From: Amphiscolops sp. MND2022
Taxonomy: Eukaryota
DNA: 64,000 nt
NCBI GenBank assembly: GCA_964187785.1
Contig: OZ076409.1
Span: 27,158,001 to 27,222,000 of the forward strand
Direction of reading: 5' to 3'
In this document: in pieces, positions 1 through 57,296 of the stretch
Layout: each line of letters begins with the position of its first letter
Numbering within the stretch: the stretch's first letter is position 1
The notes under the pieces: generated by a model
The model's input: the letters and a program-made list of their open reading frames with translations, nothing else
Database searches by the model: none
What the model was told of the DNA's origin: nothing
Program-made: the position numbers and the translations under genes

Positions 1-1957
1 AACAACATGTAACTCCACGAAACGATAAAAACAACCGACCTTATTTCGAATCATGCAACGAAATTATGCGACACAAACATGAAATGATCAATACATGTAA
101 AGTTCAAAGACCTGCCAAATCAATGACGGCACGAAAGCAATTAACAATTCCAAACTACATGCAATACAAATGAGCAACGCACGGAAATATACATGTACCG
201 TTCAAAAATGAATGAGATAATATATGCAATTCACAGCAAAACCATCCGAACCTAGACGAATAAAAATAAAACAAACAAACGAAAATACATGAAGTCTACT
301 AATTTACATGCAAAATATAAGAATTGACGAAACACCTACTAAACTAACAAAGGAGTGAGCACCCCCCAGCAAACATCAGTTTATAACAAGCAAAACACCC
401 CTATCGATAAGCCAAAAACATTCCTTCGTGCTGGCTGGCATTTCTCTGAAAAGAGTGCTGGTTAGTTGAGGCGGGGAGCTCACAACCATATTCGGATGAA
501 GCTTGCTGCGTTGGTTATCCAGCGGCTAGTGGATTCTCAGTTAGTTTTGTAGGGGCTTTGTGACGACAAAGCCCTGTCCAAATGAACGAAAATAAAATCA
601 AAAAACATGAAACTAACACCGAACATATAACGACATGTCAATAATGGGGCAACCCATTTAAAAGAACACATCATCTAACAATCCATACATGCAAATACAA
701 GAAACAGATAGTCTAAAACTGGACACATGCATAACCGTAGATGTCAATCACATTGATTGATCGGACTGACCGTCAAATGGACAAACCCATTTCGACGAAT
801 AATGGCAAACAACCAACCGAAAAAATGACATATAGACTATATATAGCCCGAAACTACGAGATTCCATTTATCTGAAAGGAGCGGAGCAGCTCCACTCACC
901 CAGCTCTGGACTGAAGCCACTAGTACCTTGCACGCCTACAGGCTATCAGTACCACTGCTGAGTGAACTTATTTTCGACCGCCACGCAAGCGGCGGTCACC
1001 AGAAAGCGAACTAAAAATACATGCAATAACGTTCCGAAGTTGACAAATTAGAAACATGACGACGATGATCAAAACACATGTACCATAAAATTCATGCAAA
1101 TTCAAAAACACGACAAATGGTTATAACCGTATAACGCTAAAATACATGAAGAAAACAATCCGAAACACCGCAATATTAATAAAATTTCCTCCGGACATGA
1201 AAAATGCAACCCCCGCTTACGTTATACCCAAATAACATCGAAAACACGCAAAAATCCGTACATTTCAAACGCACGATAAAAAGAAGATGAACTATACAAC
1301 AAAATGAGCAAAAAACTTGCCAAGTCAAACTTGCGATACAAAAACGATGAATTACACCAAAAAACTAGCAAAAATGCAAAAATTCAAACGCAAGATGAAA
1401 AAACGATGAAATACGTAGAAAAACCACATGTAACAACATGCAATATTTCTGACGCACCGAAAGATGTAAAAACGATGACAAAAACAGTTTTCACGACGTC
1501 GCTTGGTCGACCGAGGAAAACGTGATGAAAATGAGATGAAAAATCAAAGATCAAACGCTGACGAGTTACTTACACTACCGCGAGATGTAATAACGATGAA
1601 CACCATAAAAGCGACGCGCGACCGATGATCTATGATACAAAAATACCGAAGACAATGCTTCAAGTGAACTGTTGGACGAACTTGTTGATTTACACGTACT
1701 TAATATCCTCTGTAACTATCTCTAACAACTCAAAAGAAAAACAGCTGTTGGGCACCAAAATAACTAATGTTGTAAACACACTACTACCGATCTTTCCGCC
1801 GTAGCATCTGGATTTGTATCATTCTCACTATGGTCATTACTGTGCTTTCCATTTATTGACCTTTTTCATGGGTCTCCCAACATATGAATAACTACACTAT
1901 AATGTAAATACAACAAATTATATAGCAAAACAATGAACAACATAAACAGTTAATAAG

Positions 1958-4900
1958 TCAGTTTCCAATCTCGGGACTGGCAGCCCGCTCCCCGGTCACA
2001 TCGTAACCAAGACTAGCATATAACTGGAGACGATAATCTTCCCCAGCCACGATACCGACGTCGTCCCACAACATGTCCTCTGTAATCTCTGATAGATCGA
2101 CGAGCCTTCTGTGCGACTCCATCACTTCTTCCATCAGTGGCCCACTGACACTACCGTAACTTCGCACATGATTAGCAGACAAATAACTAGAGATTACTGC
2201 ACATACACAGCTCATGACATCGCTCGGCAGGTGCCCGATCCCTTCGCATATGGTATTGCAAGTGCTCTGCACCACCCCTCCCAGGCAAAAGACAAGTTGT
2301 AACAGACTCTGCGACCCGCGACTGGAACAGAAACGCAACAGATCAACGGCTGAATACTCGGCAATCGCCCCAGCTGGCCTAGGCTCGCACCGAAAAGCCC
2401 TTATGAATTCCAGAAATCCGAGCTCCATTCGATCCTGTTCGACTAAACTGATCCGCCCCATTTCCACAAGTAAACCAGTAAAATTGCGAATTTCCGCCAC
2501 AAGATCAGTTTCCGCCACACAAACCAGTCTGGGTGAACTAAAGACACTTCGCACGAAAGCAAGATCGTCACGAATCCCTGGTAGCAATAATACGTTCTTG
2601 ACGATAGACAATAAGAAATTAGGCACTCGGGACACATCCTCTTCATACACAGCCACATCTTCCGTCAAATTCTCATCTGAGCTGAAACTCGCGATAAGGG
2701 CTTGTAACTTAGTCGCTGACACAACATAACTGTCTACATCCACAAACAACCACCCACGGATATCCAGATCAGTGGGCAGGCTCTCTTCATCAACCAGTAG
2801 AGTCAGCAGGCGTTTCACAAACAATGCACTCTCGATCGCCCAGTAACAACTCCGCAATGATGAAGACCCGAAACTCTTTTCGTACGACGTCACTACTGAA
2901 ATGAAAAACACAACAATTCTATACACAGTAAATAATCGGACTAACCCCCCCCCCGTTCCCTTCCCGAAAAATGCGAATTGATTAAACACTCGAATACGTA
3001 AAGCCAACTACAGAAACTTCCCACCCGGTAAATATACGACATACTAACAAGCACGATAGACCATACTAAGTGCTCGGAGCCTGATTGGGATCCCAAACTC
3101 CACCCTCAAAGTAAGATCCAACGCATCTACTGGCCCGTCTCCCGAAGCGAATCGAACTAGACACAGCACTTCTGCCCAATTGGCACGTAATTCATCGCAC
3201 ACATCAGCAAGAGTCCACACGTAGACTTCCCCGGATAGAATAGCCTAAACAAAACATAACAAGCTCCACATAGATAAAACAAAATATTACAATACAAACT
3301 ACTACCAATATACAAACAACAGAAACAGACAAAGAGTACAACTCATAGTAACACTCAAATAAAAGCGGAAGACTACACCGACCTGCAACAGATGAGGGCA
3401 GCTCAACAACAGAGGATCCCTAACATATCCTTTCAGTCTCTTCTGCAGATGATTCAGCACCACGTGAATATCAGTCCCGCCGAGCGCCCGCCCTCCCACG
3501 TCCACAATTGTCCGACTGATTTCACACAATGACAGCGTCTTCAACTCCAGTGACCCAACGCCAGTGGCGGCTTGGAACAGTCCACCCAGCTGAGGCAACG
3601 CATCGCAACACAGTCCAAGTGGAACAGGTTCTCCAAGCAAACAACACCACATGTTAATCATCCACGTGACAACTCGTTTTTCCCAATCCTCAGACAGACA
3701 AAAACTGAAGACACAGTACTGACTGATCCCTTCTAGAGAACACATTGTGACCGTGCCAGTCACGCGCCCCTGCCCAACAGCCACATGAAAGCTGGTAAAC
3801 CCACAGTTAGACCACAGAGTGATTAGCCTCTTCATCGCGTACGGCCACAAACTCAGTAGAACCACACTCTAAAAACAAACATCAACTTTACTATACATTA
3901 ATTCACGATCCGCTTAAAAATAACCCGACACAATTAATAGTTGAAAATCCCCCCTACACCAGCTTCAAAACTACCTATGGAAAACTACCCACTAAATGTA
4001 TTTTTTTTCCATCTACACGAACCTTCATGAAACAAAAAAAAACAAAAGGAAATACGAATTACCATCACGTCATTCACTTCGCAAGTAACACCGAAAAGAG
4101 AGGCATGTTGCGGCTCTGACGCAACCATCACCTCCCACAAACTCGTTACGCTGGCGAACTGACACCCACGATAGATTGCGTCAATAACCAGGCACACGAA
4201 CAGATGCACGGTCTTTTCACACAATAGATCCTCTTCCTCCTCGTCCCCCCACACAGGTCGTCCAGCTGCTTCCAACTCAAACACCTCCAGTACACTAAAG
4301 GAGGGGCACGTCTCAATGAACGGCACCATTGCACCGCCCAGGCTGCTCCTACACTCCACACTCTCTTCATTACTCATCAATGACCCGTCGCGTCGCCGCA
4401 ACGGTAAATCCCGAAACAAACGAATCAGGCAGTCCAAACGATGGTGACGGAGCCCACGACAATGCTCCATGAAAGTAGTGATACCACGGCTGCCAACATT
4501 GATATCACGCTTGCACAGTAAACATCGAACGAATGATAGCCGCGATTGATGACTTCGTGCATAGCCCAGTGCAAGCCCACAGTATTCATGAGAAAACCAC
4601 CATGACTTGATCACTTTTCGCCCTACAAACAGAAATAATCACATGCCAACACATAGCACATCCACTAAAAACAACCACGTTCCCACAAAATACCAAGATC
4701 ATCTTAAAATAATCTTTAAAAACTGAAAAATGAAAAAACCACCGCAAACTTCCAAAAAGTCACCCGGAGTGATGAAAAAATGATGTAAAATAATGTTTTC
4801 ATCAGGAAATATAAGCGAAAAACGAAGAAAACGAAAAGATGAAAAAGAGATGCATTTTGCACATCACCAGAATGAAAAATGGAAACCTTAAAGAATGAAA

Positions 4901-6733
4901 AACTTGAACGATGGAAAAGAGATAAATAGAACGACTTTGAACCAAAAATTGAGATATTTTAGAGCGAAAACAACTTAACGATGAAAAAGAGATGAAAACT
5001 GAAAAGAAAACACCGACGAATAGCGAAAACCGAAAAGAGAAAATTTTAAAGATGTAAAAGAGATGAAAATTCTAGAAGGACTAGAGAGCGAAAACTAATG
5101 TTCAACGACTTTTGACGATGAGAATGTGATGGAAAAATGGAAAACTGCAGAAAACCATATAGTGAAAATAGAAGAACGATGAAAAATGGATAGAAAAGAA
5201 GGAAAACGTGAAAGATGCTAGTGAAAGCAAAAGCGAAGAAGGAAATGAATGAAAAATCTACTGATCAGATACTTCACCAGTTTAAAGCTGTTTAGTTAAC
5301 CTGGCAGACGGGACGCGATTGGTTCGTCATCACTATCCAGTAGACTGGGTCCCATGGGAGAAGCCACGGTCGACATGAGAGCAGCACTGGGAGAGGCAGA
5401 TTCTCGGTCAGGTTCAGCAGGCAGAAGGATGTCGGACGAGAAGTCACCAGGGACTTCAAGTAGGGTCTCAGCACCGCCGGCGGTACTCACGGAAGCATCA
5501 CCAACTATATCAGTGCCGCTGACTGGAAGGGCAGGAACAGAAGAAGAGGCAACAATGACAGGTTCCTCAACAGGAGGATCATGGAAGGTGGAGGACTCAC
5601 TGACTTCCACAACGGCCTGGACTGCTCGATCAGAGGTATCGACAACGGCATCGATGACTGCATCCACGCAATCGACAACAGCATTCACAGCAGCGTCGAG
5701 AGTGATACGAGCAGGAGGAGGACTACTAGCGGCAAAAGAACTCCTCAGCACTGGCGACAGTACAGACACTGGTGCCTGCCTGACAGGAGAACTTACACTC
5801 CCGAATGACAAGTCCTGAAGGAACGAGGACAAGTCAAGTTGAGGAGGCCCTCCCTGAGTACTAGCATCAATGTTCTCAGCCTGGTGATCACTAGTCCCTA
5901 TTCCAATGGAACAGGTGATGGGCCGAGGCCTCGGCGCGTGAATCGGTGTGGGGCCTGAAAGAAGAAACAGTTACTGGACGACGACGATTAGAGAAGAAAG
6001 AGCGCGTACGCCGCGCGAAGAAAGAAAACCGGAGAAGAATACATCCAAAACTCATCTTCAAAAAATGGGATTTACAGCGAGTCAGTCATGAAGAGCTGTG
6101 AATGTTCATGACACATCCTAAATTCATCTCGAAGGTGAATTACATGGGTAATCGACCGCAAAGGACACTACATGCAGATGAGATGTTTACATCGGAATCA
6201 CATCGGAGTGTTCGGACGATAGCCTAGAGAAGTGAAAAGGAAATTGACAAACTCACTGTACTGCTGGATGCTATCCCGCAGCATGTCCCGCATGTGGCGG
6301 TCATACCACCCGAAGGTGATGCTACCTAGGGAGGCATACCAGGGGTAGTGGTCTGAAACACCATACGAAAAGGAGTCAGCTACTGGACGGAGTAAGGATG
6401 AGATACGAGGGATTCGAAGACTGAACTGAAGAATGGAAGGATAGTACTTACACTGCGGAAGATACGGGACGTTAGGGGCCTGTTCAGTTTGCTGCTCAGG
6501 TTGATACTGAGGCGCGTGAGATGCTGCAGGGATTGGAGCATCTTGAGGCGGAACTGTCTGCAACGTAGTCAGTTCGGAGATTATGCCGACAGAGTGAACG
6601 GAGTCCGCTAAAACCAAGACACGCCTTCAATTCCTAATTATTCCCCGGCCCGTTTGTGAAGAAGAAAAATAGTGCACTTACTTCCTGTGACCTCAGTCTC
6701 TGGTAACGAATAGATGGAGTTGATATCCGACAT
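1958..6733 (-). CDS. Predicted spliced ~1,088-aa protein with a Ser/Pro-rich N-terminus, BED-like zinc finger and degenerate hAT-transposase-like body; probable antisense cargo of an LTR retrotransposon
   Basis: Phase-consistent GT-AG exon chain on the - strand: 6733-6682, 6607-6452, 6382-6257, 5954-5301, 4622-4063, 3868-3383, 3244-3062, 3007-1958 (3267 nt). Motif CLLCKRDINVGSRGITTFMEHCRGLRH. The 6257->5954 and 5301->4622 joins are less certain, so this could be 2-3 genes. Confidence 0.6.
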
Positions 6734-7860
6734 CGCGAAGAATTGCAAAACAATCTGAAAAGAATGGAAGACGGTGAAAGAAGGAAAGAAATCGAAGAAT
6801 CCAAGAACAGAGAATTTGATCAGTAATTAAATGGCCTGATCAACCATAATTACAGAAGAACAAGTTCAATAGAAGATTTCAAAGAGCGCGACGCAGCTTG
6901 AATGCCATGTTAATCAAATACTTGAATTCAGAAGATGAAAAATCGATGAAAAACTCTCCGATTTCAAATACTGACATCACTTTTCTTCCCAGTACAACCA
7001 ACTCAAGCTTTCTCTGAGAATGGATCGTCCTCTCCTAGGACTTGACAAAAAAACTTCAAGTATTTGATTTGTTGACAGCTGCCAGTCTCAGATCAATACC
7101 GAAGAAGTTGAGCGGAAACGCGCAAAGGAAATCGTGGCGATTTCAAACTGACTTAAATGGAGGATGATTTATGGATGAGAATGCTGCTGACAACCGGTTG
7201 TAGTTTCCTTCAGTTATAAATTCAGTCTCAGCCAATCAGATCGAGCAACAGTTGCTATGGCGACGAATTCATCTCTTTCTCTTTCACTCAAAAGTCGAGC
7301 AGCGGAAGTAACTTTTGATAGTTGCTATGGCAACGATTCATCTCCTTTCATCGCGAGTAAACAAGCAACGGCGCCAGCCATTCCGCTAAACAGCATCAGT
7401 GTCTCGCTGAGCAAACAATTCATCGTTCATTCATCCCTGACTCGCTGCCAATTTGTCAGTGAAGCTAATCGAATTGTTTACTCAGTGTAGGCGTTTTGGA
7501 GGGAAACTCTTCTCCGAGAAATCAGCTTCTACCGAAAATAACCAGCCGAAACTCCCGTCAAAAGCATGACAACCAATAAAATGCAGATCAGCGGACACTC
7601 GATGGACCAAGAATTAGAGTTGCCGCGTCGAAAATTTTAACCGAAATCACCCAGGATGATGCCAGAAAAGACGATTACCGAAGGTCCTCTTCTCAGAGAA
7701 GCTCTCACAGGACAGAACAAACGAAGGACATGCCAATTCAGAACTAACGAAGGCCATTTTCTCCCCAACCAAACGAAGGACCAGTCGAAGCCAACGCCGA
7801 GACAACCATCCTCTGCACATTTGGCCCCTGCACTCTCAGTCCAAATCCCGCCCCGGGGAG

Positions 7861-10032
7861 TGTCATGCCAGCATGATGGAAATATAATCTACTAAATATT
7901 TGTAATGTAAATATTATGTCTTATGTACTTAGATATGGGCAATATGATGTCATATAATAAGAGCCATGGTTGTGAGCAACCCTACGTTACTTGTACCTTA
8001 ATCCCTACCCCCCCTGAGTTTGAGCTATATATATTTATTTAATACTGAGCGCTCTAGTTCCGGTGTCCGCACAAATGATCTTGCCAATAGCTTTAATGTG
8101 CTATCTTATTCAATATTGGTTTGTCACGATAAGGGAGAGAAGTTTTCCGGTCAGACTGGACCGAGAGATGTAGAAATAATGGAATATGTAACTTCTACTA
8201 GCTCCCTCGCCTCAGGACTTGTAGTCGTGAAGATTTTCAGAAAAGTTCATCACTAATCCATCAGCGGACTTAGTGATCCTTTAACTTCACCTACTAGTGA
8301 AATCACGGTGCTATGTTATCAAGGTTCATCGCAATCACATCGCCAAGATTGCGGGTGAACAAAATTTGGGACATTTATTTGATTTCATTTAGTGATCCAT
8401 CAGCGGATCTCACGGGACTTTAAAATACATGAAAACCATCTTATACTCATCGTCGTTTTGTGAATTTTAACCTTCAATGTGCTTCTCATTTCTTAAAAGA
8501 GCATAACACATCTATATTTCATCGTCCTGACTAGTAACTACAAGGAATGAGAAAGTACATCCTTAATTCATCCTAAAAAAGAGTGAAGTGCTGGATATCT
8601 GTTTTTTTAGATTAACTCATCACTAGTTCATCGTAAATTCATCGCTAGTTCGACTTGCGTTAGAATTAGCCGAAATTTCAGTTGAGTTCATCCTAAACCC
8701 ATCGTAGGAATTTCATTCATTAGATTTTGCTGTTTTATTGAATGTATTCATCCTAAAGTCATCATATATTTGTCTTCACTGCAGAATTAGCTGTTTCACC
8801 TGCTTTGTTGGCTGAATTCATCCTGAATTCATCGCCAATTTCACTAGTGCTGGAAATTAGTTATTTTCGAGGAGAGTTCATCCTTTTATCATCGTCAGTT
8901 CATATCGTGTTGATTTTCGAGCTAAAAGACCACCATTCATCGCATTTTCATCCAGAGCTAAACTAGACTTGAAAATCAGCAAATATTCTGACGAATTCAT
9001 CGCGTTTCCATCTTTGGTTTTGAAGTATTGATCTTAATGCTAGAATTAGTTGGAAAACATCGTTTTCTCATCCTGTGATGCAGTTTACTCTGTTTTGACT
9101 TGAAATTAGTACATTATTGAATGATTTGAGTTGCTATAGAAACCATGACACTGTGTGCAGGCAATTGCGACATTGTAAAGTGATGATTAGTCATAATTAG
9201 CATATGTAGATGTACCATGTGGTTTGGCCAACTTGCGGCAGTTCACAACACCGGTCACGTGACTTACCAATTAGCACCAACTGGCAATAGCCAACAAGAG
9301 TCGGCTGGTAAGAGATTTAGCGTCTTACCAGCCTGAAAAGACACGTGAACTGCTGTATTTTGGACCGCCATTAGAGATTACTCAGACCGAAATTGCGATT
9401 AGCTACTGTCCAGTTGGACGAATTACGACAGATTTGAACTAGAAAAACATATCTCTTATTCATCGTAAAACGCTACCTTCACAACTCTGAGTAATTTCTT
9501 GATTGATACCTGTCCGATGAAATTTGGATGAACTCTACTTAATCCTCGTTAACTATTCTCATTCTATACTAGTATCCTTGTCTTACTGTAAAACTCATCG
9601 CATTTACATCTCAAGTTCAGAAATAGTGAATTTGAGTTCGAATAAAGGCACAAAATAGTAAAATACATCGAAAAATCATCCAGAATCCAGTCTTCACTCA
9701 TAATTCCTTTTCTCTCACCTCTATGAACCCAGATCTAGGCACCGAACTCAGAAGCGGAAGAGTTATTAGTTCCTCATCAGAAACACACGTTCAAACGGAC
9801 CCAGACATGGCTCAGTCTTCTGCCAATGATTCTGATAGCAACGAGGTTTCCGATATCTCGTCTCAGTTATCTGAAATAAAAGAGAGCTATGAGAGAAAGA
9901 TAAACGAATTACAGAATGAGTTCAGTCAACTGAAGGACTTAATGATGGCTGTCATAAGTAAGACAGACACCGAAAACCGACAGTCAACCTCGAAAGGTCC
10001 TTCAAAGCCGACCCACACGGTTGGGCTCGACA
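7861..10032 (+). mobile_element. Long (~2.17 kb) LTR, probably the 3' LTR of a giant Ty3/Gypsy-like element extending left beyond the window
   Basis: Begins TGTCATGCC right after the purine run GGGGAG (7855-7860, PPT-like) and ends GGGCTCGACA (imperfect terminal inverted repeat TGTC..GACA). TATA-like run ~8027, AATAAA ~9642. Followed by a (CT)n microsatellite. Confidence 0.6.
9723..10032 (+). pseudogene. gag-like N-terminal ORF inside the LTR, truncated at the LTR end
   Basis: MNPDLGTELRSGR followed by a coiled-coil (EIKESYERKINELQNEFSQLKDLM). The coding character stops exactly at the terminal GACA; the rest of the ORF is CT microsatellite. Confidence 0.5.
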
Positions 10033-10666
10033 CTCTCTCTCTCTCTCTCCTCCCTCTCTTGTTCGCGAGTTTGTTGGAAATTTAACAAGCATGATCAGTC
10101 ATCGATAGTTGCTTATGCTAATGCCTACTCAGCTTGACTTTATTGTTTCATTTTCCGGTTGATTCATTGTAAGAATCATTTTAAAAACCGTTAGTTTTTC
10201 ATTAGTCATTAATGGATTCAGATTCGATCTCTACTGTCAATTAAATCAATGAATCATCAATCGAAACGATCTCAAAAATTGATTCATCTTTTTTATTTCT
10301 TACGACTTGTGAAATATAAACAGCACTTGTACGGAAACCAGAAGTGCTAAATTGCTTTTTGTAAAAGTTATTTAGTCAATTGATCGATCGATTCGTTTCA
10401 AGTCATTTTAAAAGAAGACTCGAAAAATCAATTTTCTAATTGAGTTAACGTCGAAACTAGTAATTGGTTGAAATTTCCTTGCGTCAATTTGCCTGAATCA
10501 TCTAATGAATGCTAATAGCTTTCTAATAGCTTCTACATTTTCCTCTGAAACGTAGCGAATCATCATTTGCTCTTGCTTCGTTTCCACTGATCAGTTGCTT
10601 TTCTGCGAGAAAAAAAGTAGTTTTGTCAACTGAAGAAACCTCAGTTTCTCAACAGCGCCATAAAAC

Positions 10667-15624: not shown

Positions 15625-17773
15625 TGTCAAGACCTGTTGTCGGTCTGTGTTCAACATCTCATTCGGGAATCATCCATCGACCGTGACGCAAGAAGTTTTG
15701 GACACAGGAATGGACAAAACTTCTAAACTTATGGTTAGTCAACAAAAACTCTACATGCAATACAGCTGGATAACTTGTAAGGCTTTTTCGAATAATAAAA
15801 GCTAACGTCAGGACAACGTGGTACTTTGCAAAATATTTTTGATCTAGCTAAAACTTCCGGTCTAACAGTTTTCACGGGTGGCTACTTTCACTTTCCGGAT
15901 TATCCTATGAGATTTCCATACTGATCCAAACATCAAAACGGAGACAATTTTTCTGAAAAAATATATAAATCCACCCTTTTTATACCCTGAAATAAAACAT
16001 TACGAACAAAACAAAACGATTTTACAAAATAGTATAGTAGATTGTTTTTCATTAACAATGTAGTTGTCAAAATTCACTTACATTACAATCAAGCAATTCA
16101 AGCAAACAATTACAACGTTATGGCGGCGTCACTCAGCTAGACCAGTAACTAGTGTTTCTATTTTCACGGACCAATAACGTCGTCCCTTGGCCAAAGTATT
16201 TGCGCTCAGTCCAAAAGGAATGATTTTCTTATTATGTCATTAGCTGAGAGAATATGAATGAACGCCTACGCTCTCCACTGTCTCTCCGTTAACTGCTATT
16301 CAGCTATACCCGATCTTATTACGTACGAAGACGTTACGGAGCAAATTGTAAAAATGTAACTAAGAAAGCGAACCTCTAAGCTCGATCTCAAGGATGTTGT
16401 CAGGAAAGCGATGCTGTAGCGGAACCTTAGGATCAGGATTTACATAGTAGAAGCTGTACTGTAAAGGAAAGCCAAAGTTGTGATCATAACACGCCTGTTT
16501 GAATACTGTACTTAAGCATTAATGATGAAGTTACGTTCATCTTACGTCGCAAACTCCATATTCAGAAAATAATGATTATTAATCATGATTTACAATTCAT
16601 ATGTTATTCAAAATTGCAACGTAGGGTTTCCGTTATTCATCATCAAACCATCGGTGAGTTGTACTGTTCCGTTGTGATAACATTTCGATTGCTATTATGT
16701 TATGTCCAATTCGTATAGAGTTAGTGAAATTGGTTTCCGTTGCTATTACGTTATGTTTTATGTTTGTGAAACGTTTATAGTACGATTTGTAAATCGTGTA
16801 ATTTGCCAATGTATGAGTTTGTGTTTTCAACTTTTGTAGTTTTGCAGTAACTTATTTTGTTCGCGCTAATTGTCGGATTGTGTTATCCTAACATCATTTG
16901 TTCTCTTCAATTTCATACTTTAAGCATTTTCAATCCTGTTCTGTTTCAGTCACGTCTTTATTTTTGCGTGTCATACTTTTGTCATCACTTTCAAATGTCG
17001 CAACTTGGAAATTGACTAACTGATCACGCTGTCGTGGTTTCGGTGATGAAAACATTGAGCAGTTTTCTTTTGCCGCTATTTCTTGTTCAAACAGGAAATG
17101 CGATAGCATGAACAAAATTGATGTCAACAATGGCTACGGAAGGATGACGCAACTAGGAATTTTGATACCTGATTTTATGACTGGGTTGATTTGGATTATT
17201 AAGGTTTTTTTAGTCAACAAACCCGATTTTAATGATTCCTACAAATTTTAGGTGAGGAACAAAAGATGCAAGGAAAGTATAAATATGTAAACCAGACATG
17301 TAAGTTTTAGTTAGTACTCTTGTTATTGCACGAAATTATCATGTTCCGTTACATCCATTGTATCCAAAAATCGATTTTCTTCTTCTCAACTCAAAAATGA
17401 CAAGCAGAAGTCACAAAAGAAAAGCCGTAGCAGAGTTAGCGTCAGGAGAGTTTGAAGCCTTTGTAGCCGAAAATAGTCATTCTGAGAACCTACTAGCAGG
17501 ACCCAGTAAGTCGCCTAAAATTCAGACTGAGAAACTAGATGAAATGAAAACGTCCCCTAGAAAAGAGATAATGTCCGATCTGACAAAAATCTTAGCTGAG
17601 AACCAGATGGAATTGTTGAAACTTATAGCCCTTGCTATCAAAAAAACCTACAATCCACCGAAACGTGGAAGATTCAGACTCTGAAACGGAAAATAACCGT
17701 CCAGCATCTACGTCAACACCTATAAAATCAAAAGCGACTGATTCTAAAACTACTCCGATAAGTAGCCGTAACA
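15625..17773 (+). mobile_element. Probable solo LTR (~2.15 kb) ending in a frameshifted gag-like ORF start
   Basis: TGTC...TAACA flanked by ATATC direct repeats (15620-24 and 17774-78). The ORF MTSRSHKRKAVAEL... (from 17398, frameshifted near 17640) runs to the terminal CA. Confidence 0.5.
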
Positions 17774-21835: not shown

Positions 21836-22730
21836 GGTACTCCTGACTAAGTGTGATCCCAAGCGATTTCTCCTTACTAAGTGTGGTCCCTTTAATGTAA
21901 GTGTGGTCATGTAACGTTAGCATATTTGTTGTATGGCTCGGTCGCTTCGCTCCCTTCGCCAAGTAGCAACATTGAGGCATGGCCATATGGCACGTCGCTC
22001 CGCTCCTGCGTTTAGGGCACTAGGGGTATGTGAACATATCTGACTATGTTATAAAAATATTTTGTTTTTGAATTATTTGGGACTCAATTGTCGCGGGACT
22101 CAATTGTCGACCCCCTAAATTTAATTTATTTTGGGACTCAATTTGTATATCTGTATAATCGTTTGCATAGATTCACTCTCGAAAACTGTTTAAAAAATGA
22201 GACCCCGGATCTATCTAGCTGTCTCACTTGAGTCAATATTAAATTGACAAAACTGAGGTGACTGAAGCCAGATTTTGTCTAAGAAAATCTGGTACTCCTG
22301 ACTAAGTGTGGTCCCAAGCAATTTCTGCTTACTAAGTGTTGTCCTTATGATGTAAGTGTGGTCCCTGCATATTTTGTCGGAATAATAATTATAACGTAGT
22401 CAGCTATATTCACATACCCCTAGTGCCCTAAATGCAGGAGCGAAGCGAAGCGGAGCGACGTGCCATATGGCCATGCCTCAATGTTGCTACTTGGCGAAGG
22501 GAGCGAAGCGACCGAGCCATACAACAAATATGCTAACGTCTTCAAATCAACTTCCATACATATTGGCTGTAACCGCACTAAAAGCTAGTAAATTGAATTA
22601 TGCTGTTTTGAACTACATGTAATATTTGCTTTACGTTGGCTATTCTAAATTTGCTAGGGACCACACTTAGTCAGGAGTTTTCAGGCCGGCTGCATAAATT
22701 TTGTAGGGACCACACTTAGTCAGGAGTACC
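21836..22730. mobile_element. Merlin-like non-autonomous DNA transposon (composite)
   Basis: TIR GGTACTCCTGACTAAGTGTG..CACACTTAGTCAGGAGTACC with an exact 8-bp TSD ATTTCTTC (21828-35 and 22731-38). Extra TIR copies at 22291 and ~22657. GG-starting TIRs with 8-bp TSDs are typical of Merlin. Confidence 0.75.
21914..22539. repeat. ~140-bp inverted repeat pair nested in the Merlin-like element
   Basis: 21914-~22053 is the reverse complement of ~22389-22539 (GCATATTTGTTGTATGGCTCGGTCGCTTCGC...). Confidence 0.85.
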
Positions 22731-22857
22731 ATTTCTTCGTTGTACCTATAATTCACAATTCCAAAAACTTTTTTTTTCAATTTGGAGGGGATCGAGGTTC
22801 GCTGATTGAAATTAGGACGGTTTTTACGCCAGACATGACGGTGTATACACCGTATAC

Positions 22858-22981
22858 ACTGCATACGATGTGAAAAGGTTCTGCCAGATAGTGGGCCCAT
22901 TTTCAGCAGTTTGCTTATATATAAGCATACTGCTGAAAATGGGCCCACTAACTGGCAGAACCTTTTCACATCGTATGCAGT
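22858..22981. repeat. 124-bp near-perfect loopless palindrome
   Basis: ACTGCATACGATGTG...TGCTTATA|TATAAGCA...CACATCGTATGCAGT, centre 22919/22920, two mismatched pairs. Confidence 0.9.
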
Positions 22982-25677: not shown

Positions 25678-28600
25678 TGTTCTATTTCTTGGTTCGAGTA
25701 AGAAAACAAAAGGGTTTTATTTAAAATGTCTCTTTAACATAAAGTACTGTCAAGCGATATTTCTTTAACTAAGATATCTGTAACAAATGATATAGTCTCT
25801 GTATGAAATGAGAGTACGGTGTTTACATATATGTAAAAACATAATCTTGGTAGCTCTAGGAAAAGATCTAAGTTTGATTGACAATGCCACCGAAAGATCG
25901 GTCCGGTATATGTACCGTATAACATTTCCTCCCTCCTGGGTCTTCTTCGGTTTCTTATTTTGATGTTCCCGGTGTTGGAGTTTTCTCGCGGATGAAGTCT
26001 GCGGGCTTCGTTAGTGGTTTTGGCGTCTCCTTTCTGTTGTTCCATTTTCCGGCTGTAACACTTGTAACAATTAATTTTTGATTTACACACAAAAATTTTT
26101 TGTATATGTAATCCCCCCGTATCTATTCGGTTGTCTACTTTCAATGTTGGACCGTCTTATTTTTTCATTTTCGGTTGTTTTACTATTTGTTTGTTTCTCA
26201 CCCGGATTTATCTCACCGTCTCTAGGTTCAGTTCATCTTCGGAGGATGTTGTGATTGGTTGGTAGCGGCCGTCTTGTTCAGAAGTGTCGTGATTTTCAAA
26301 GTCACTTTCTTCGTCTTCTATTTCGCCTTCCTTGCTTTCAGAGTCTGATTCGGTTCGCTGATGTTGTACAATTTTCAGCTTTCCGTTTAATACATCTCTT
26401 AGAATCTCGTTCCATTGAATGTATTTGCCATCGACTCCCCTGAGACAGTGTCGGTTTTTTGGAGTGATGGTATCTCCGATCTTCGGCGCTGTCTCTCTTT
26501 CTTTCTGAAATACAATTGGATCCAAAATAAATTTTCGGTGAATTATTTTTCCGGTATTAGTGGTTACGGTGTGTTCTGTGCCGTCCACTGCGGTTTGTAG
26601 GTGTTTGTGAAATCTTGCTTCTAATGATTTTTATTGTGTTTTTTTTCGAAAAATTGGAAGGGGTATCTACCAACCGAATTATTCTTTTTTGGTGATTTTT
26701 CGGCAAGTGTTTTTTTTCCGTTTTTGTTCGGGCCGTAAGGAGGTGATTAGATACTTCTCTTTCACCATTTCTGGTCACATAGATCGGTATCTTTGGGCGG
26801 TTGTTTGTTAACACAGGTAATTCTGACCAATTTGAAAGGAAAGATTTTCCGTCCTTTATTATATTTGTTAATTCGGTTCGTGGTTTTCGACCGTGATGTA
26901 ATTCAAACTGTGTGGTCTTTAGTCTCGTATGAATTGTCAACCGCATAACATTCAATGCTCTAATTACGCATTCGGTTAAACACGTGTTATCTTCCAAGTT
27001 TGCGATAATTAAGTTCTTTAGTGTTTGTATTGCGCGTTCTACTGCTCCCGTACCGGTATGCATTCTCGGTGTGCTATATTCAATCTCAATATTTTTCGTG
27101 TTACAGAATTCCTTGTGTTATTTGTCCCCCCCTTTGTCCGTTTTTATTTTCTCCGGTAATCCGTATAAATTGAAATTTTGTTTCAAGAAGTTTAATGCTT
27201 TCTTGGTTCGCGATGATTTGCAAATTTTGCAGTTGGCCGTTTACTGAATCTATCTATTGCGATTGATATTTGGTATTCTCCGTTTAATTTTTTGTTGTTT
27301 AATTACCGGAGAAATCTATTAGAAGTTCTTGTCCCGGTTCCGTCAATGTTTTTAGTTTTCCATACTCAGTTTTTGGTAATTGGTATTTTAAATTCTTGTC
27401 CGATGACATGCAGGCCACACACTTTTCTGTTTTGCCTTCTATCTCTTTTTGCATCTTCGGCAACCAAAATATTTTGGCCTCTGCTGTCAATTTGGTAGCT
27501 CCGGCATGTCCGAAATGTAGAGTGTCCAATATTTCTTCCGTAGTTCGGTCGGTACTACTATCCGGTCGTCGTTAAATGTAAGCCCCCATTTGTTGTTCAA
27601 CTTTTCGAAAATTGTTCGGTATTGATCCGGGACCGTGTTTTTATCGCCTCGTAGCTTTGCATCCCGTACCCGGCTGAGTTCGGCATCCGTTGTTGATTTG
27701 GCGATCAGTTTTTTAGATCGAGCATAAAGTTGAATTCAGACTTTTCGATCGTGTCTTCGGTGTTCTTTTTCTCACCGGTGACTTTTCTAATGATCTGGTT
27801 TATTTGTATAAACTGAACTTCCTTTCTTTCCTTCCGTGTTGTATGCCTTTAGATTAACGATGGGAAAGTTATCACCCCGGATTACTTGGCTTTCACCTTC
27901 GCTCTCTTGTTCGGTGTCTTCGATAGTTTCCGGTTTTTGGGCTTCTTGCTATTCTTCCACTCGCTCTTCGAGGGGTTGATATGCCCCGCCGAATCAATAT
28001 GCCCTTGATAGCAAATCACCGTCGATCTCCGCAATTTCTTCGCGACTTCTCTTAATTGGTCTTGAAGGTACCCAGATCTGTCTTTCCGCGTTCATGTCAA
28101 ACTTTCGGCGTATTGTTCCGGGCCGGGAGATTTCTAGTCGTCTTTCTACGAGCCGGAGGGTTTCTGGGCTTTTTCTTCGTCTTCTTATTATCTCCATAAT
28201 TTCAGCAGTTGCGCCCCAGTGAGAATAGTCTCTGTACATTTCGCTCTTAAATAGAGGTAATTCTTTTGATGATGTATTTTGAATCGAATTTAAATTCATG
28301 TTTCGGGTTGAGCTTTCCGTTTTGGCTTTTTGTCGGCGTTTGTTCGATGCGCTTTTTGTTTGTTCGTAGTTTTCATTCACTTCTCGGTTTTTCTCGAAAG
28401 TTCTGTTTCGATGTGATTGGTTGTTTAAATTCTCTTCGGTTGTTTTAGTACTTTTCGGTGCGTTTTGTGATTGGTCGACGAATAGTGGTCCCTATTTTGC
28501 GTTTAAATCGGTTTGTTCTGAGAGAATATTAATTATGTATTGCTCGTAGTATACGTCTTCGCTCGCTGCTTTCTCTACCGGATTTCTACTAAGAAAGTCG

Positions 28601-31547
28601 GTGAATTTTATATTGTTTCCTGCGATGGGTTGGATAGCAATATCAAAGTGCGCGAGTCGATCTAACCATCTAGTTAGTCTTGCGCTGTATTGTCTTTTGC
28701 ACCGATTTCTTTTAATCAAAGGTTCAAGTGCCTGGTGATCGGATATAAAAAGATTTTCTTTCCGTATAGATAAAATAGGAATTTCTCTAGCCCCAAACAA
28801 CTGCGAGTATTTCAATTCTAATTCTCCGATTGAGTAATTCTTTTCGCTATTGTTTAGGTATCTGCTTCCGAATGCTATCGGTTTCATTTCTCCATCCGAC
28901 TGTTTTTGCCATAAAGTTATTCCAAGTCCGGTTTTACTGGCGTCGGTTGTAACTATGTTTTCTCTGTCCTTGGTGTAATGGGTTAAACTTTATGTGTTCT
29001 TCGGTTAACATTTCTTTTATTTTATTGAAGTCCTTGTCTTGTTCTTTCCCCCAGTTCCATACCGAGTCCTTTTTTAGGAGTCTTCGGAGTTTTTCTGTTT
29101 TTTCCGATAATCTCGGTAAGAACTTTGCAAGGTATTGTATTGCACAGAGGAATGACTTCAGTTGGTTTTGGTATTCTGGATGTTTCAAATCCAGAATTGC
29201 TTTCACTTTTTCTTTGTTCGGTTTACTTCCCGTCTCATCAATTTCATGTCCGAGCCACTTTGTTTTATTTAGGAAGTATTCGAATTTTCTTTCACTTGCT
29301 CGGTATCCGGCGTCTTCTAAACTCTTTAATACATCGAATAGTTTGTTTTGGTGTTCGTTTCGGTCGCCTCTAGTTACTACGATCATATCGTCAAGCCATG
29401 CCGGTGTGGAATTTTCTAGAGTTCGGTCAATTGTTTCTTGGAATATTGCTGGGATATCGGCAAGACCGTAGAATTCCTTTTTGAATCGATAATATCCGCT
29501 GAACTTTCCTTCGGTTATTGCAAATACACATTGTCGGCTTGTTTCTTTTGATAATTTGATCTGACTATATGCATAGTCGAGATCAATTTTCGACATCTCT
29601 AATTCTTTCGTCCGGTCTCTTGTGATTTCTACCGAAATTTGGTTTGATAGTTTTTCCAGGTTCGGCATGTGTGGTTGGTTTTTTATACAGCTGTCGTTCA
29701 GTTTTCTCGAATCTAATGCAATTTTTACCGACTTGTCGTTCTTTACCCTTTGAAACAAAGCTCTTCATCTACGTGTTTTACTTTCTCCATGTGTCCGGTT
29801 TTTAATAATATCTCCAATTCTCTCCCGACGTCTTCTTGTAGATGTAGTGGGATCGGTTTTGCTTTTTGTTTCACCGGATAGTGTCCCGGTTTTAATTGGA
29901 TGTTGATCTCGGTGTCTTTTATCGTGGTGTTATTTTTAAATAGGTCCGGGAATTTTTCAATTATTCGTTTCTTTTCCAACTGGTTACTGTCCTTTACTCG
30001 GATGATTCCAACTGTTAGTTTGATATTTTTATCCAGTCCATTCCGAGTAACGGTGTTATGTCGTTTCTTTCGGTAATCAAGATTAGCATTTTTTGTTTGT
30101 TGTTCTCGTATTCGATATCAGCCGGTATCTGTCCCCGGAATTTCACTTCATTTTTATTCACGTCTTGGTATTGGTGTTTGACTTTCTGTATCTCGGTTCG
30201 CTCCATTATATTCTCGTCTACAGGCATTATTGAAATTGGTGATCCGGTATCCACTATGAATTCTTTTTCGATTCCGTTTACTTTCACTATTGTTGTTAGA
30301 TATTTGTTTCTGTCGGTAATTCTATTCATTTTTTCGATTCTGTGTATACTCATCTCTGATTCGTCTGTTTCTCCTCCAATTGCATCTAATTCTTCTTCGG
30401 TAACATTACGTACTTTGCGTTTGTAGTTTTCTCTTTGTTTGCAAACGCGTGCGAAATATCCCTTCTTCCCGCAGTTATTGCAAAATTTTCCAATGCCGGC
30501 CATTTGTGAGTGGGATTCCAGTTCGGTGCGTTACAGAATTTACAAGGTTTCTCGTTTGTAAATTTATTCCTTGGTCTTGTATCGTATCTTTCCATTCTTT
30601 GTATCGGTTCTTCTTTTATTAATTTCTCTCGGCTTGATATCAGTGCTTCCAGTATACTATTTTTCCGATTTTTTCCTTCATAAGTATTTTGTTTGATCAT
30701 TCAAATTGTTTTCTTCAGTTCAAGCGTTTTCTCTTTCATCAATTTGTCTCGGAGTTTTGTATCCGTAATTGCGGTCATGAATTTTGAAACTAATGTGTCT
30801 TCGGTCGTTACTCCTTCGAATGCGCATTCTGTTTCTATTTCTTTGAGTTTCCGCCAGAAATATTCCGGTGTTTCGGATGCGGTTTGTCGTGTCCAGAAGA
30901 ATTCCCCGCGGTTATGATAAGTGTTCCGTTTCGGTAAGAAATATTCGTTGAATAATCGGATAAGGTCTTTTACCGATATTTTGTCGGGTTCTGTTTTGTA
31001 CTCCGCTCATTTGATATAGTGCTTTGGGTCCGATTCCCCATATGAAATCTTCTTGAATTTCATCTTCTTTTCCGGACCAACCGGTTTGTGTTATTCCAGC
31101 TTCCCGTATTAATTCGGTGACGTCCATTTTGTGTTTTCTCTTGGTATATTGCCGAAATCTTTCAAGCCATTGTTTCGGAGTGAACATTCTTTTCCTGTCT
31201 GCTGTGGCTTCGAAATTCGGTACTTCGATGTTGCTTTCTTCTGTCGTTTTCTTTGTCGTAATTAGAATTTCTAGTGTAGTTTAGATTGCTGACTGCGCCA
31301 TGTTCTATTTCTTGGTTTGAGTAAGAAAACAAAAGGGTTTTATTTAAAATCTCTCTTTAACATAAAGTATTGGCAAGCGATCTTTCTTTAACTAGGCTAT
31401 CGGTAACAAATGATATAGTCTCTGTATGAAATGAGAGTACGGTGTTTACATATATGTATAAACATAATCTTGGTAGCTCTAAGAAAAGATCTAAGTTTGA
31501 TTGACAATGTCACCGAAAGATCGGTCCGGTGTATGTACCGTATAACA
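25678..31547 (-). mobile_element. Full-length decayed Ty3/Gypsy LTR retrotransposon
   Basis: 247-bp TG..CA LTRs (25678-25924 and 31301-31547; ~12 differences by eye), 5-bp TSD GTATG, PBS TGGCGCAGTCAGCA (tRNA-Ser-like), PPT AGGAGGGAGGAAA. Domain order gag-PR-RT-RH-IN. Confidence 0.95.
26200..31187 (-). pseudogene. Frameshifted gag-pol (zinc knuckle, aspartic protease, RT, RNase H, integrase)
   Basis: CNNCGKKGYFARVC; FIVDTGS; WLDD (YXDD-like); SDHQAL and IAFGSR; HFGHAG..CVAC; GAVERAIQTLK. Split over many ORFs. Confidence 0.9.
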
Positions 31548-33353: not shown

Positions 33354-34856
33354 TTACAATGAATTAATCTGAAGAACCGTTCGAATTACATCTAGCCCCA
33401 AGTCGACATCTTCCGCTGTTATACACATAGGGGGTTTCACCCGCAAGACATTCCCAAATGGACCCCCTCGGCCCACTAGGAGCCCCAAATCTTTCAAATC
33501 TTGTAAGAACTTCACAGCTTTTCTTTCTTCCAAAGGTTTCTTGCTCTCTTTGTTTTCTACAAGCTCAAGCCCAATCATCAAACCTTTCCCTCGAACATCG
33601 CCCACCATTTCAAACTCTTCTCTCAACTGACAGAGTCCTTGAATTAATCTGGTTCCAACTTCGTCGCAGTTTTGTTGCAAATTCTCATCTTCCATAATGT
33701 TCAGAACTTCTTCACCAACCGCACATGCAAGAGGGTTGCCTCCGAAAGTGTTAAAATAAGCACCCGTCAGATGTGACGCAACTTCAGGAGTTGTAACTAC
33801 TGCCGCTAATGGAAACCCATTACCGATACCTTTGGCCGTTACAACAATATCGGGAGTCACACCGTGCGACTGAAAGCCCCAGAAATGACTGCCAAGTCTT
33901 CCAAATCCTGTTTGTACTTCGTCAGATATGCAAACACCTCCACATTCTCTCGTGATTTTGTATGCTTCGTTTATAAATCCTCTTGGATATTGCACAGTAC
34001 CACCGACACCTTGTATTCCCTCAGCAACAAAAGCGGCCAAGTTTTTGGAGGTCGTGAAATTAACGGTGTCCAAAAACTCTTGAACATACTTCCCAGCTGC
34101 CGAACACTTCCCGTTTTTACACTCACAGCGTCTGCCAAGAACCTGTGAGATGCTGTCACGACAACTGGACCCACCGTAAGGACCTTGGTACGGGTCTACC
34201 AGTGTCCCGAGATGGAGCATTCCATGCCTTTTAGTGACGTTGAAATGCCAACCAGGTCCGCTGCTAAGACCCATGGTACCGATGCCTGTTCCGTGGTACC
34301 CGTTTCGCAGGGCCACAATCTCATGATTTCCCGTTGAAATTCTTGCAAGTAACATAGCCAAGTCGTTTGCTTCAGATCCGGAATTCACAAAATGAGCCAC
34401 GCTCAAGTTTTTTGGCAACTTTGAAGTCAGTTTTTTAGCATAGGAGGAAATTTGTGGGTGTGTGTAGATAGCTGCTGTGTGCCATAAAGTTTCAGATTGT
34501 TCTTGCAAAACCTTGACTAGTCTTGGATGACAATGACCAACTGAAACAGTTGCGATCCCAGCAAAAAAATCTAGGTACCTTTTTCCATTGTGATCAAATA
34601 TCCATTGTTTACTGGCCGTTGAAACCATCAAGGGCTCTTTGTAATAGGGTTCCAGAGAACGATTCAAATGAACTTTCTTCAGTTTCAGCAATTCTTCGTA
34701 ACTGAACTTTGATCTACTAAGAAAAGATTCCGAAGCTTGACTGGAACTGACGTTTGCTTGAGCAATCGCTGAAAACGCGGCTTTAGGAATCCATGATGTG
34801 GTTGTTTTAGGAAACCAAACTGTCTTAGGGGCTTGAGAAAGAATGACTCTCAGCAT
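33354..34856 (-). CDS. AGXT2: Alanine-glyoxylate aminotransferase 2-like (class III PLP aminotransferase), paralogue A, probably mitochondrial
   Basis: 500-aa intronless ORF with YLDFFAGIATVSVGHCHP, NSGSEANDLA, ISDEVQTGFGR and TAKGIGNG (PLP Lys). Arg/Ser-rich, acid-free N-terminus. Likely 5'UTR intron 35132-34885. Confidence 0.92.
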   Translation of the reverse strand: MLRVILSQAPKTVWFPKTTTSWIPKAAFSAIAQANVSSSQASESFLSRSKFSYEELLKLKKVHLNRSLEPYYKEPLMVSTASKQWIFDHNGKRYLDFFAGIATVSVGHCHPRLVKVLQEQSETLWHTAAIYTHPQISSYAKKLTSKLPKNLSVAHFVNSGSEANDLAMLLARISTGNHEIVALRNGYHGTGIGTMGLSSGPGWHFNVTKRHGMLHLGTLVDPYQGPYGGSSCRDSISQVLGRRCECKNGKCSAAGKYVQEFLDTVNFTTSKNLAAFVAEGIQGVGGTVQYPRGFINEAYKITRECGGVCISDEVQTGFGRLGSHFWGFQSHGVTPDIVVTAKGIGNGFPLAAVVTTPEVASHLTGAYFNTFGGNPLACAVGEEVLNIMEDENLQQNCDEVGTRLIQGLCQLREEFEMVGDVRGKGLMIGLELVENKESKKPLEERKAVKFLQDLKDLGLLVGRGGPFGNVLRVKPPMCITAEDVDLGLDVIRTVLQINSL

Positions 34857-49927: not shown

Positions 49928-50167
49928 CCCAGCGATCGAAGACATGGTACGCTTGCCAAGAACCATGGTAGATCGCTAGCTAGCCTTGCCAAGATCTTAC
50001 CATGATCTTACCAAGATCTTGCCAAGGATACCACGATTATGCAAGATCGTGCCAAGCATACCACCTATCATGATTAGCCATGATCTTGACAAGGGTACCA
50101 TGGTTAACTATGATTTAGCAAGATTAACCATGATCTTGGCAAGCGTAGCGTGTCTTCGATCGCTGGG
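49928..50167. mobile_element. MITE with CCC-starting TIRs (CMC/EnSpm-like)
   Basis: TIR CCCAGCGATCGAAGACA / TGTCTTCGATCGCTGGG, AA on both flanks, internal CTTGCCAAGAT subterminal repeats. Confidence 0.8.
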
Positions 50168-50256
50168 AAATCATTAGAATAAAGGAAAATGATGTAGAGT
50201 GCTTCAGGAATTAAATAATTTTAGTATATATTTTAGTAAATTAAATAATTTTAGTA

Positions 50257-50407
50257 CTGTTCTCGTACTCGTTTGGTGGCTCTTCCTTTTCCCGCCACAC
50301 ATAGAAAACTGAATTTTTGACTAATAAAATAATAATTTATTAGATAAAAATTCAGTTTTCTATGTGTGGCGGAAAAAGGAAGAGCCACCAAACGAGTACG
50401 AGAACAG
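50257..50407. mobile_element. Hairpin MITE with TA TSD (Tc1/mariner-like)
   Basis: TA-CTGTTCTCGTACTCGTTTGGTGGCTC...GAGCCACCAAACGAGTACGAGAACAG-TA; almost entirely palindromic. Confidence 0.8.
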
Positions 50408-50453
50408 TATCTTGAAAATATGTCGATTTCTGTTTGTGTTCTATTGTGAAGAA

Positions 50454-55833: not shown

Positions 55834-57296
55834 TGTGATAATCCTTTTCCTCAGAGTCCTCATTTGAGATCATTGTTTCATCTAGGTCTATCTCATTACG
55901 GTACAAAGATTTTGCAGGATGTCTCATATCCTTGGAGCCTGAGGCTTTAAGAGGATAATCCTCGTTTTCTGAGTCAGAATTTTCAATGTTAGATGCGTGT
56001 ACTCCTATAGACTTGGATCCCGATGGTTGTGAATTTTGGGCTTCTGCTGCTTCTGACCTGGGATTCGTTGTTGTTGACATGCTTTTATTAGATCTAATTT
56101 CCTTTAAGATGGACTCTAGTTTATTGTCCATTTCTTCTCTCATTTTGGTAATTCTGTCATTGCTTTTTTGCTCTAAAATCTGCGTCCAAACTTGTATTTC
56201 GTTGCTAGTTTGACTGGGTTCGGCTAGTTGATTTTCTGAGTTGTTATCACCTAAATCTCCCTGAACATTCACGTTTAAATTAGTCAAAGTTTCATTACCT
56301 GTTTGGCGTCTCTAACTGGATGTTATTGACTTCTCTCTCAGGGGAAGGTGTCTCTAATCTCCTAGAACGTCTGTTTCTCTTGTTTCCCATCTTTACTTGG
56401 TTGATAACATCAGTTTGCAAAGGGGAAAACAATTGAATTTCTCCAGTGAATTGGTGCAAATAAGAATAGGTTGATGGCCAAAAATGTTGAAGGAAAGTTT
56501 ACAGATTGAGCAAAAGAGTTACAATTAAGAAGCAACTGCACTCTATGAAGGTAAAAAACAATTTTTAGCAAATACTCTTATTGCACTCCTTGTTTCAAAA
56601 ATAAAGAATGACACTCCTTTTTATGAGAATCAGGGTAGGAAAAGTACAAAAATAACATTACGTCAAAAAGACGTCATGCTATTTATATCCTGCAATCATC
56701 AAAGCATGATATTCAAAACGAACCTAACTGCCCTTTTGGACCCTGGAAAAGAGTTATAAAGCGACGTAAGAGGTATTCCAAATGATATAGAGCACCGTAT
56801 ACGCATTATCTATACAGTGTGGTTAATCCTGCTGAAAAGGTATAATACAGTGTGTGCATCACCACGGAAAACGTATGTTACCGTATGCAGAAAAGCGCAT
56901 AATAACGCATATGCGTTACTCTTAAAAACGTATAATGCCGCGTACCAACATTGCGCAAATCAGTATGATGCCGTACATACGGCACTCTACAAACTGTATA
57001 ATGCCGTATTGCCAAATTGAGTGAAGAAGTTCATTATTGCATGAATGAAATAGCAAAAGCACTATAGCTCCGAAATTACGTCATATAAAGATGACTCAAC
57101 TTAAGGTTTTGAATATTCATGACGATAAGACTAATTTAACATTACCATCAAATCGAAATGTCTTTGAATGAGAAAATATTTAACATTTACATGACCTCTA
57201 AAAATAAAACAAATCTTTAAATTTAGTTGGGTTTGGCTGCTTTTCTGTTTGTTCAGGGTTGCACTACGGCTCCATCGCAGCGCTGGGGCTCCGACA
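55834..57296 (-). mobile_element. Probable solo LTR (~1.46 kb) ending in a gag-like ORF start
   Basis: Minus strand TGTCGGAG...TATCACA with flanks CTGGT/ATGGT (one mismatch). Coiled-coil ORF ...RITKMREEMDNKLESILKEIRS... ends at the terminal CA; degenerate ATG at 56410. Confidence 0.5.

Follow-up and report, generated by a model that had tools for sequence, protein, structure and literature searches.

It is very probable that, throughout an abundant Ty3/gypsy clade of Amphiscolops sp. MND2022, the gag frame starts 100-216 codons inside the long terminal repeat (LTR), and that the N-terminal part of Gag is likely translated from the 5', LTR-derived end of the genomic RNA. The window, by which we mean the whole 64,000-nucleotide stretch of contig OZ076409.1 analysed here, contains three LTRs of this kind. 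As the first-pass annotation had described, one of them carries a 103-codon ORF that runs to the terminal GACA: its ATG lies at 9723, and the 310 nt up to 10032 make 103 codons and one base. The two further elements that it had listed, at 15625-17773 and 55834-57296, were also found, and both start with TGTC. The features of the three LTRs and their surroundings are the following.

1..7860, plus strand: internal region of a family-A element after pol, with antisense open frames; gag and pol are in sequence L031, before the window starts
7841..7860, plus strand: sequence at the position of a polypurine tract, a short purine run ending in GGGGAG that abuts the LTR; a candidate for this role by its position
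7861..10032, plus strand: 3' LTR of 2172 bp, TGTC...GACA, differing from its own 5' LTR by 5 mismatches and 2 gap positions
9256..9387, plus strand: likely promoter, putative in function, with CACGTG at 9256 and 9342, CCAAT at 9267 and an initiator-like TCAGAC at 9382
9723..10032, plus strand: in-LTR start of gag (103 codons), with a basic LRSG start, an acidic linker, one long helix and a disordered tail
9849..9980, plus strand: predicted single helix, codons 43-86, coiled-coil-like (AlphaFold2, block pLDDT 67-90)
10033..10085, plus strand: target-site duplication (TSD) CTCTC (10033-10037) in a CT run, then 17 chance read-through codons to a stop
15625..17773, plus strand: family-B solo LTR of 2149 bp, TSD ATATC/ATATC, with a gag fragment from 17397 that is frameshifted after ~83 codons
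55834..57296, minus strand: family-C solo LTR of 1463 bp, flanks ACCAT/ACCAG (4/5 match), with a gag fragment from 56390 that is frameshifted after 30 codons

The LTR at 7861-10032 is no solo LTR; it is the 3' LTR of a full-length copy, because a paired copy of the LTR with the 9723 ORF is found 16,983 bp further upstream, before the start of the window. The full-length family-A element (G000:C1:27148877-27168032) is 19,156 bp long with the TSD CTCTC. Among the 40 scored of 1,507 candidates from a DNA search of its own genome, many were paired 14.6-17 kb apart. All eight full-length family-A elements, that is the window element and 7/7 others, have perfect 5-bp duplications, and their LTR pairs have 0-5 differing sites. 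The sequence at 7841..7860 precedes 8/8 examined 3' LTRs with at most one change. Between pol and the 3' LTR of family A, antisense frames are found on the minus strand at 1958-2461, 3302-3835 and 3985-4470 of the window, and one such frame has a sub-threshold Pfam match to a BED zinc finger (E 0.002). In the family-A U3 (window 8230-9080) a loose TTCATC motif with a ~60-nt period was seen by eye, of which Tandem Repeats Finder reported a short piece only. The solo LTR at 55834..57296 aligns end to end with the 5' LTR of L252 at 89%. Elsewhere in the window, the minus strand carries two intronless class-III aminotransferase ORFs of ~500 aa, at 33354-34856 and 41410-42909, which agree at 70% in a segment of 300 nt and form a tandem host gene pair, and long inverted repeats with palindromes at 21836-22981 and 49928-50409 are probably miniature DNA transposons.

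The in-LTR ORF is the N-terminus of Gag, as the first-pass annotation had proposed to check in full-length copies. The distance from the ATG to the LTR end is exactly 310 nt in 30/30 fetched family-A copies, 15 of which, the 5' LTRs, go on into TGGTGACAGGAG, and the other 15 into unrelated DNA. In all fifteen 5' LTRs the frame continues, giving an ORF of 501 aa in 13, and it crosses CA|TGG as D-M-V-T-G, goes on to encode capsid and two zinc knuckles, and is followed by a -1 pol. The 1703-codon pol frame overlaps the gag end in the -1 frame, and most of 13 representatives have heptamers at the gag end that we take to be of the slippery type. The junction frame is the same in family C, with 186 in-LTR codons, and in family B, with 126; it is intact up to the junction in 6/10 and 4/4 of their 5' LTRs, respectively, the family-B relatives having been gathered by protein search as the family-B junction pattern matched one copy. 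The length of 100-190 codons given by the first-pass annotation was thus about right, the range found being 103-216. Its fixed breakpoint was also borne out: 79/83 scored ends without a primer binding site (PBS), from families A, B and C, end in CA at one point, and therefore the fragments do not result from random truncation. In one family-C copy, L246 (G000:C1:3822772-3832771), a single frame of 1558 codons runs from the junction, and the sequence after MVTG resembles the protease region, as though a deletion of capsid had joined the N-terminus from the LTR to pol.

This layout is widespread in the genome. A 15-mer across the LTR end and PBS has 7,449 exact genome matches (control, 1), and the junction word xAC-ATG-GTG-ACA-GG is read D/N/H/Y-M-V-T-G. 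Family A contributes 556 junction copies. We sampled the first 90 junctions fetched, all from contig C1 and all with the exact 15-mer, so that clade members with other junctions are uncounted. At least 100 open upstream codons were found in the junction frame in 68 of these 90 and in either other frame in 0/90, and in 47 of the 51 copies with at least 300 downstream codons, 80 or more codons separate an upstream ATG from the junction. Clustering of the 68 N-terminal proteins (at least 80 codons) gave 7 groups at E<1e-12 and 3 at E<1e-4, and representatives, aligned on the invariant M-V-T-G as anchor, have 103-216 in-LTR codons. In families A, B, C and D1, copies without a PBS confirm that the LTR stops at the junction; its end is placed from one tRNA-tailed copy in D3 and from the PBS in D2, E, F and the L238 type. 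In an RT tree of 23 copies from this genome, rooted by midpoint with no outgroup, a deep split at ~65% identity separates A+E from B+C+D+F, and the layout is found on both sides; it would have arisen once, before the families split. Of 148 profile-search representatives, 35 contain a junction-like motif or begin at one. In the metagenome contig L255, H-M-V-T-G is preceded by 129 codons and the rest of gag takes up 412; a TATAAA stands 197 nt ahead of the ATG, and the LTR end is putative. The contig is likely from another host, because the closest match to it in this genome, at 70%, covers just part of the query.

The in-LTR gag codons are under purifying selection in every computable family. 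By the Nei-Gojobori method, in-LTR dN/dS was 0.07-0.47 in all 75 computable of 99 pairs, the remaining 24 being saturated or without silent change, and pairs share history and are not independent. For first, second and third codon positions, diversity among 20 haplotypes of family A was 0.164/0.162/0.355 within the in-LTR ORF, compared with 0.285/0.283/0.310 for the 320 nt before it and 0.042/0.016/0.293 for capsid, and there were 12 indels in the in-LTR ORF versus 258 upstream. That the fragments are random 5' gag pieces left by deletion, or a chance ORF in an A-rich LTR, is a reading with practically no probability left: the A-rich composition is the sole point for a chance ORF, whereas the fixed CA end, the 5-bp duplications in 8/8 elements, the 0/90 control frames and the codon-position pattern all contradict it, and it is already refuted.

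The family-A Gag was predicted by AlphaFold2 (mean pLDDT 60.6) to have a helix at residues 43-86, a disordered junction and capsid helices from ~177. By analogy, the helix may be matrix-equivalent; coiled-coil Pfam matches for the in-LTR part were sub-threshold only. In a fold search with the capsid, dArc1 and PNMA2 ranked first, with a best E of 0.005 and none at E<=0.001.

In Ty3/gypsy elements, gag normally begins after the PBS. Several features place the present clade in this group. In the 1703-codon frame, Pfam matches are in the order protease, RT, RNase H, integrase, the protease match being weak (E 0.007), and the best PDB match of pol is Ty3 Gag-Pol. Pfam zf-CCHC was found in 15/24 and Retrotrans_gag in 9/24 at E<=0.01, with two zf-CCHC in the family-A Gag. 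The elements have direct TG...CA LTRs, a 5-bp TSD, a Gag with capsid and CCHC, and a tRNA PBS. Thus they share with Ty3/gypsy (Metaviridae-type) elements the PR-RT-RH-IN order, the CCHC knuckles, the capsid fold, the TG...CA ends, the 5-bp TSD and the tRNA PBS, and differ from the usual ones in having ~20-35% of gag in the LTR, a length of 19 kb and antisense frames after pol. Ty1/copia (Pseudoviridae) was ruled out by the position of integrase after RNase H; the likeness to Ty1 and Tca5 is in layout only, namely a gag frame that opens in the LTR and crosses the PBS. In L032/L033, which represent one copy, no errantivirus-like env was found among sense frames of at least 150 codons after pol; besides the gag fragment of the 3' LTR there are two such frames (172-180 codons), and neither gave a Pfam match.

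The primer is tRNA-Leu(CAG). The PBS is a 12-nt match to tRNA-Leu(CAG) plus CCA with no spacer; the tRNA-Leu(CAG) genes, as which 2/5 scanned loci were called, end in CTCCTGTCA, and CCA is not encoded. Families A, D1 and D3 supply three LTR ends that directly abut 42-47 nt antisense to mature tRNA-Leu(CAG) including CCA. Such tails are what would be left if plus-strand synthesis had read into the primer, and these tRNA-tailed ends fix both the identity of the primer and the lack of a spacer between CA and TGG. It is because no spacer separates CA and TGG that an ATG forms at the junction. The tRNA-tailed ends are in L168, L170 and L173 (position 1497 onward, oriented), of which two lead into internal sequence and one into unrelated DNA. 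The longest tRNA copy halts immediately on the 3' side of the position that follows the anticodon, at which a methylated G, a modification that we presume to be present, would block RT. The pattern of the tRNA-Leu 3' end has 1,034 forward matches genome-wide, and sequence of this 3' end is also held in a large tandem array of ~180-300 bp units at G000:C8:35587100-35632697 and beyond.

Transcription would start ~90-340 nt upstream of the gag ATG, inside the LTR. A TATAAA is found 100-330 nt upstream of the gag ATG in 26/53 copies, with no intervening ATG in 16 of the 26, and in the two bins from -200 to -100 it occurs 17 times versus 5 on the other strand. The remaining 27 of the 53, all family-A copies among them, are without TATAAA in the tested interval. 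Family A has two CACGTG and a CCAAT at -780 to -690 from the LTR end and an initiator-like word at ~-650, followed by two short upstream ORFs after the presumed start. CACGTG is present at the two places in 78/90 and 71/90 family-A copies, and TCAG[AT][CT] near -650 in 38/90. A TATATA at 8026 was dropped as a promoter candidate only since conserved boxes are located near -780 to -650. As for poly(A) signals, no AATAAA position is common to all families; in family A, the AATAAA at 9641 is found in 12/90 copies and that at 9875, within the ORF, in 61/90. Reverse transcription from the PBS would then copy the 5' end of gag into minus-strand strong-stop DNA, which would carry it into both LTRs, and Pol would be made by a -1 frameshift at the gag end. 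The gag fragment is duplicated in both LTRs.

Alternatively, Gag could start at the junction ATG, formed by the CA of the LTR and the TGG of the PBS, with the upstream frame being no part of Gag or a minor long isoform. The junction ATG is invariant and has good context: +4 is G in every copy, and -3 is a purine in 67/90. In an unrelated gypsy element of the window, a stop immediately precedes the corresponding junction, and a gag-like frame, broken after 6 codons, opens at the ATG formed there. Conservation of the junction ATG is uninformative, however, because CA and TGG force it, and the 100-216 codons before it contain no in-frame stop and show purifying selection wherever this is computable. 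We consider this alternative highly improbable. The upstream in-LTR ATG often has a pyrimidine at -3, and because its context is poorer than that of the junction ATG, a shorter Gag may also be made, the long and short forms being mixed by leaky scanning. The unrelated element, at 25678-31547 on the minus strand, is decayed and has 247-bp LTRs; its apparent start at the junction ATG is a possible ancestral state for the in-LTR layout.

At silent sites, the LTR-borne part of gag diverges 3-4 times faster than capsid. In 90 family-A copies, the median third-position divergence of the LTR ORF was 0.09, 0.16 and 0.31 at capsid divergences of <0.03, 0.03-0.06 and 0.06-0.10, and it plateaus near 0.4. 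One possible, though tentative, reading is that the LTR-borne Gag domain is an exchangeable cassette, the first strand transfer between co-packaged RNAs swapping the block from the transcription start to the LTR end. This would agree with the fall of divergence within 15 nt of the LTR end in 10/18 close pairs (chosen after the profiles had been seen), with L214 and L123, which differ solely in the block from ~-650 to 0, with the mutual rejection of in-LTR and post-PBS trees in 2/4 groups, with a clustering of parent switches near -660 and 0, and with 108/883 family-A pairs that are near in capsid yet far in the LTR ORF, compared to 11 for a later gag segment. On the other hand, only 3/34 parent switches in six groups were near the junction, and in 45 family-A haplotypes the cluster at 0 is matched in size by those at -220, +660 to +810 and +1015, the junction cluster being one of ~six among 235 non-independent switches. 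Furthermore, distances correlate as well across the junction (0.82) as within gag (0.79-0.87), and LTR-ORF divergence climbs monotonically with capsid divergence, which fits a faster rate. Five kinds of test did not establish exchange at the junction. The broader proposal that the LTR-borne Gag domain is fast-evolving and swappable, and that young solo LTRs express a coiled-coil peptide that joins or poisons Gag assembly, seems unlikely to us; as the domain sits in the strong-stop block, co-packaged elements would in that case exchange it together with the promoter.

The first-pass annotation had further supposed that each solo LTR leaves a promoter and an open ORF reading into host DNA, which could yield fusion peptides or dominant-negative Gag fragments. 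Both true solo LTRs of the window, 15625-17773 and 55834-57296, are in fact frameshifted. In the sample, the ORF is retained in 45/83 ends without a PBS, with intact fractions of 15/15 in young family A, 13/20 in family C, 13/20 in family-B copies selected by protein match and 4/28 in old family-B copies. Expression of the fragments from solo or 3' LTRs, with relevance to the host or element, is quite unlikely, although young copies without a PBS do keep the ORF downstream of the putative promoter (all 15 of family A and 13 of the 20 of family C) and the in-LTR fragment contains a complete predicted helix. One copy of family A, the 3' LTR of L028 (G000:C10:53452116-53455548), reads in frame at least 500 further codons and is the sole long read-through among 45. 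For the 45 copies with the ORF, median read-through is 10 codons versus 12 for random window DNA; the fragment is without capsid, as the LTR ends at residue 103 and the predicted capsid helices begin near 177; and the ORF is intact in so few of the old family-B copies. Omega for private mutations of solo and 3' copies was 1.50 in old family B, 1.11 in protein-selected family B and 1.01 in family C, values that use an assumed transition weight and hold at the level of the class, at which single domesticated copies would be invisible; family A, with 3 private changes, is too young for such an estimate. There were also 19 new stops among the private changes. With no capsid, a median read-through of 10 codons and an omega of 1.0-1.5, the proposed fusion or dominant-negative use found no support. 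The gag copies in 3' and solo LTRs are a capsid-less by-product in neutral decay as a class, and because of this decay, the short read-through and the lack of a capsid such as Ty1 factors have, a consequence of their expression is unsupported as a class property.

As far as the accessible parts of the literature go, the layout has precedents in other groups. In Ty1, the GAG AUG precedes the PBS, with a 53-nt 5' UTR and the PBS at nt 95-104, and the LTR end and PBS are coding; unlike the present clade, Ty1 has ~13 codons before the PBS, copia order and no folded domain in the LTR (PMC5454406, in the text available). In Candida albicans Tca5, the first ATG is 382 bp into a 685-bp LTR, giving ~101 codons, and the available text of a review calls the real start unclear (PMC4139406). 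The first-pass annotation had named Ty1, with a few codons in U5, as the known case, which is too narrow in view of the ~101 codons in the LTR of Tca5 given in the same text (PMC4139406), and because of this precedent the depth of the gag start alone is not new. Tca5 is described there as Ty5-like, with copia order, an initiator-Met primer, low copy number and few solo LTRs (PMC4139406, in part), whereas the present clade is Ty3/gypsy, with thousands of copies, at least 7 N-terminal types, up to 216 codons and measured selection. The Ty1 restriction factors p22/p18 and Drt2, which depend on the capsid C-terminal domain according to the portion of PMC10951436 available, are alike in being truncated Gag products of element remnants; unlike p22 and Drt2, the LTR fragment stops before capsid and as a class shows no selection once inserted. 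Planarian Burro and plant Ogre are also gypsy elements of large size, with long LTRs and additional coding capacity, Burro having a giant polyprotein with env, which was not seen in the element of this clade, and the accessible portion of PMC6431247 describes no gag start inside the LTR for either. Likewise, the available parts of PMC3601003, PMC7055915 and PMC3095310 hold nothing on a gag-in-LTR layout. By full-text phrase matching, a narrow search with subscription journals, Repbase and supplements outside its range, we found no description of a gypsy clade with at least 100 gag codons in the LTR.

In summary, an abundant gypsy clade, with 7,449 exact junctions or one per ~140 kb, breaks the rule of non-coding LTRs. 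The LTR end, the integrase end signal and the primer site also serve as protein code, and every new copy carries a folded Gag domain in duplicate. The evidence of selection that is missing for the Tca5 precedent is supplied here. For annotation, calling gag from the PBS on misses 20-35% of the protein, and solo LTRs give rise to thousands of short false genes. The step in silent divergence at the LTR end offers a rare comparison, within one frame, of substitution and recombination rates between LTR and internal sequence.
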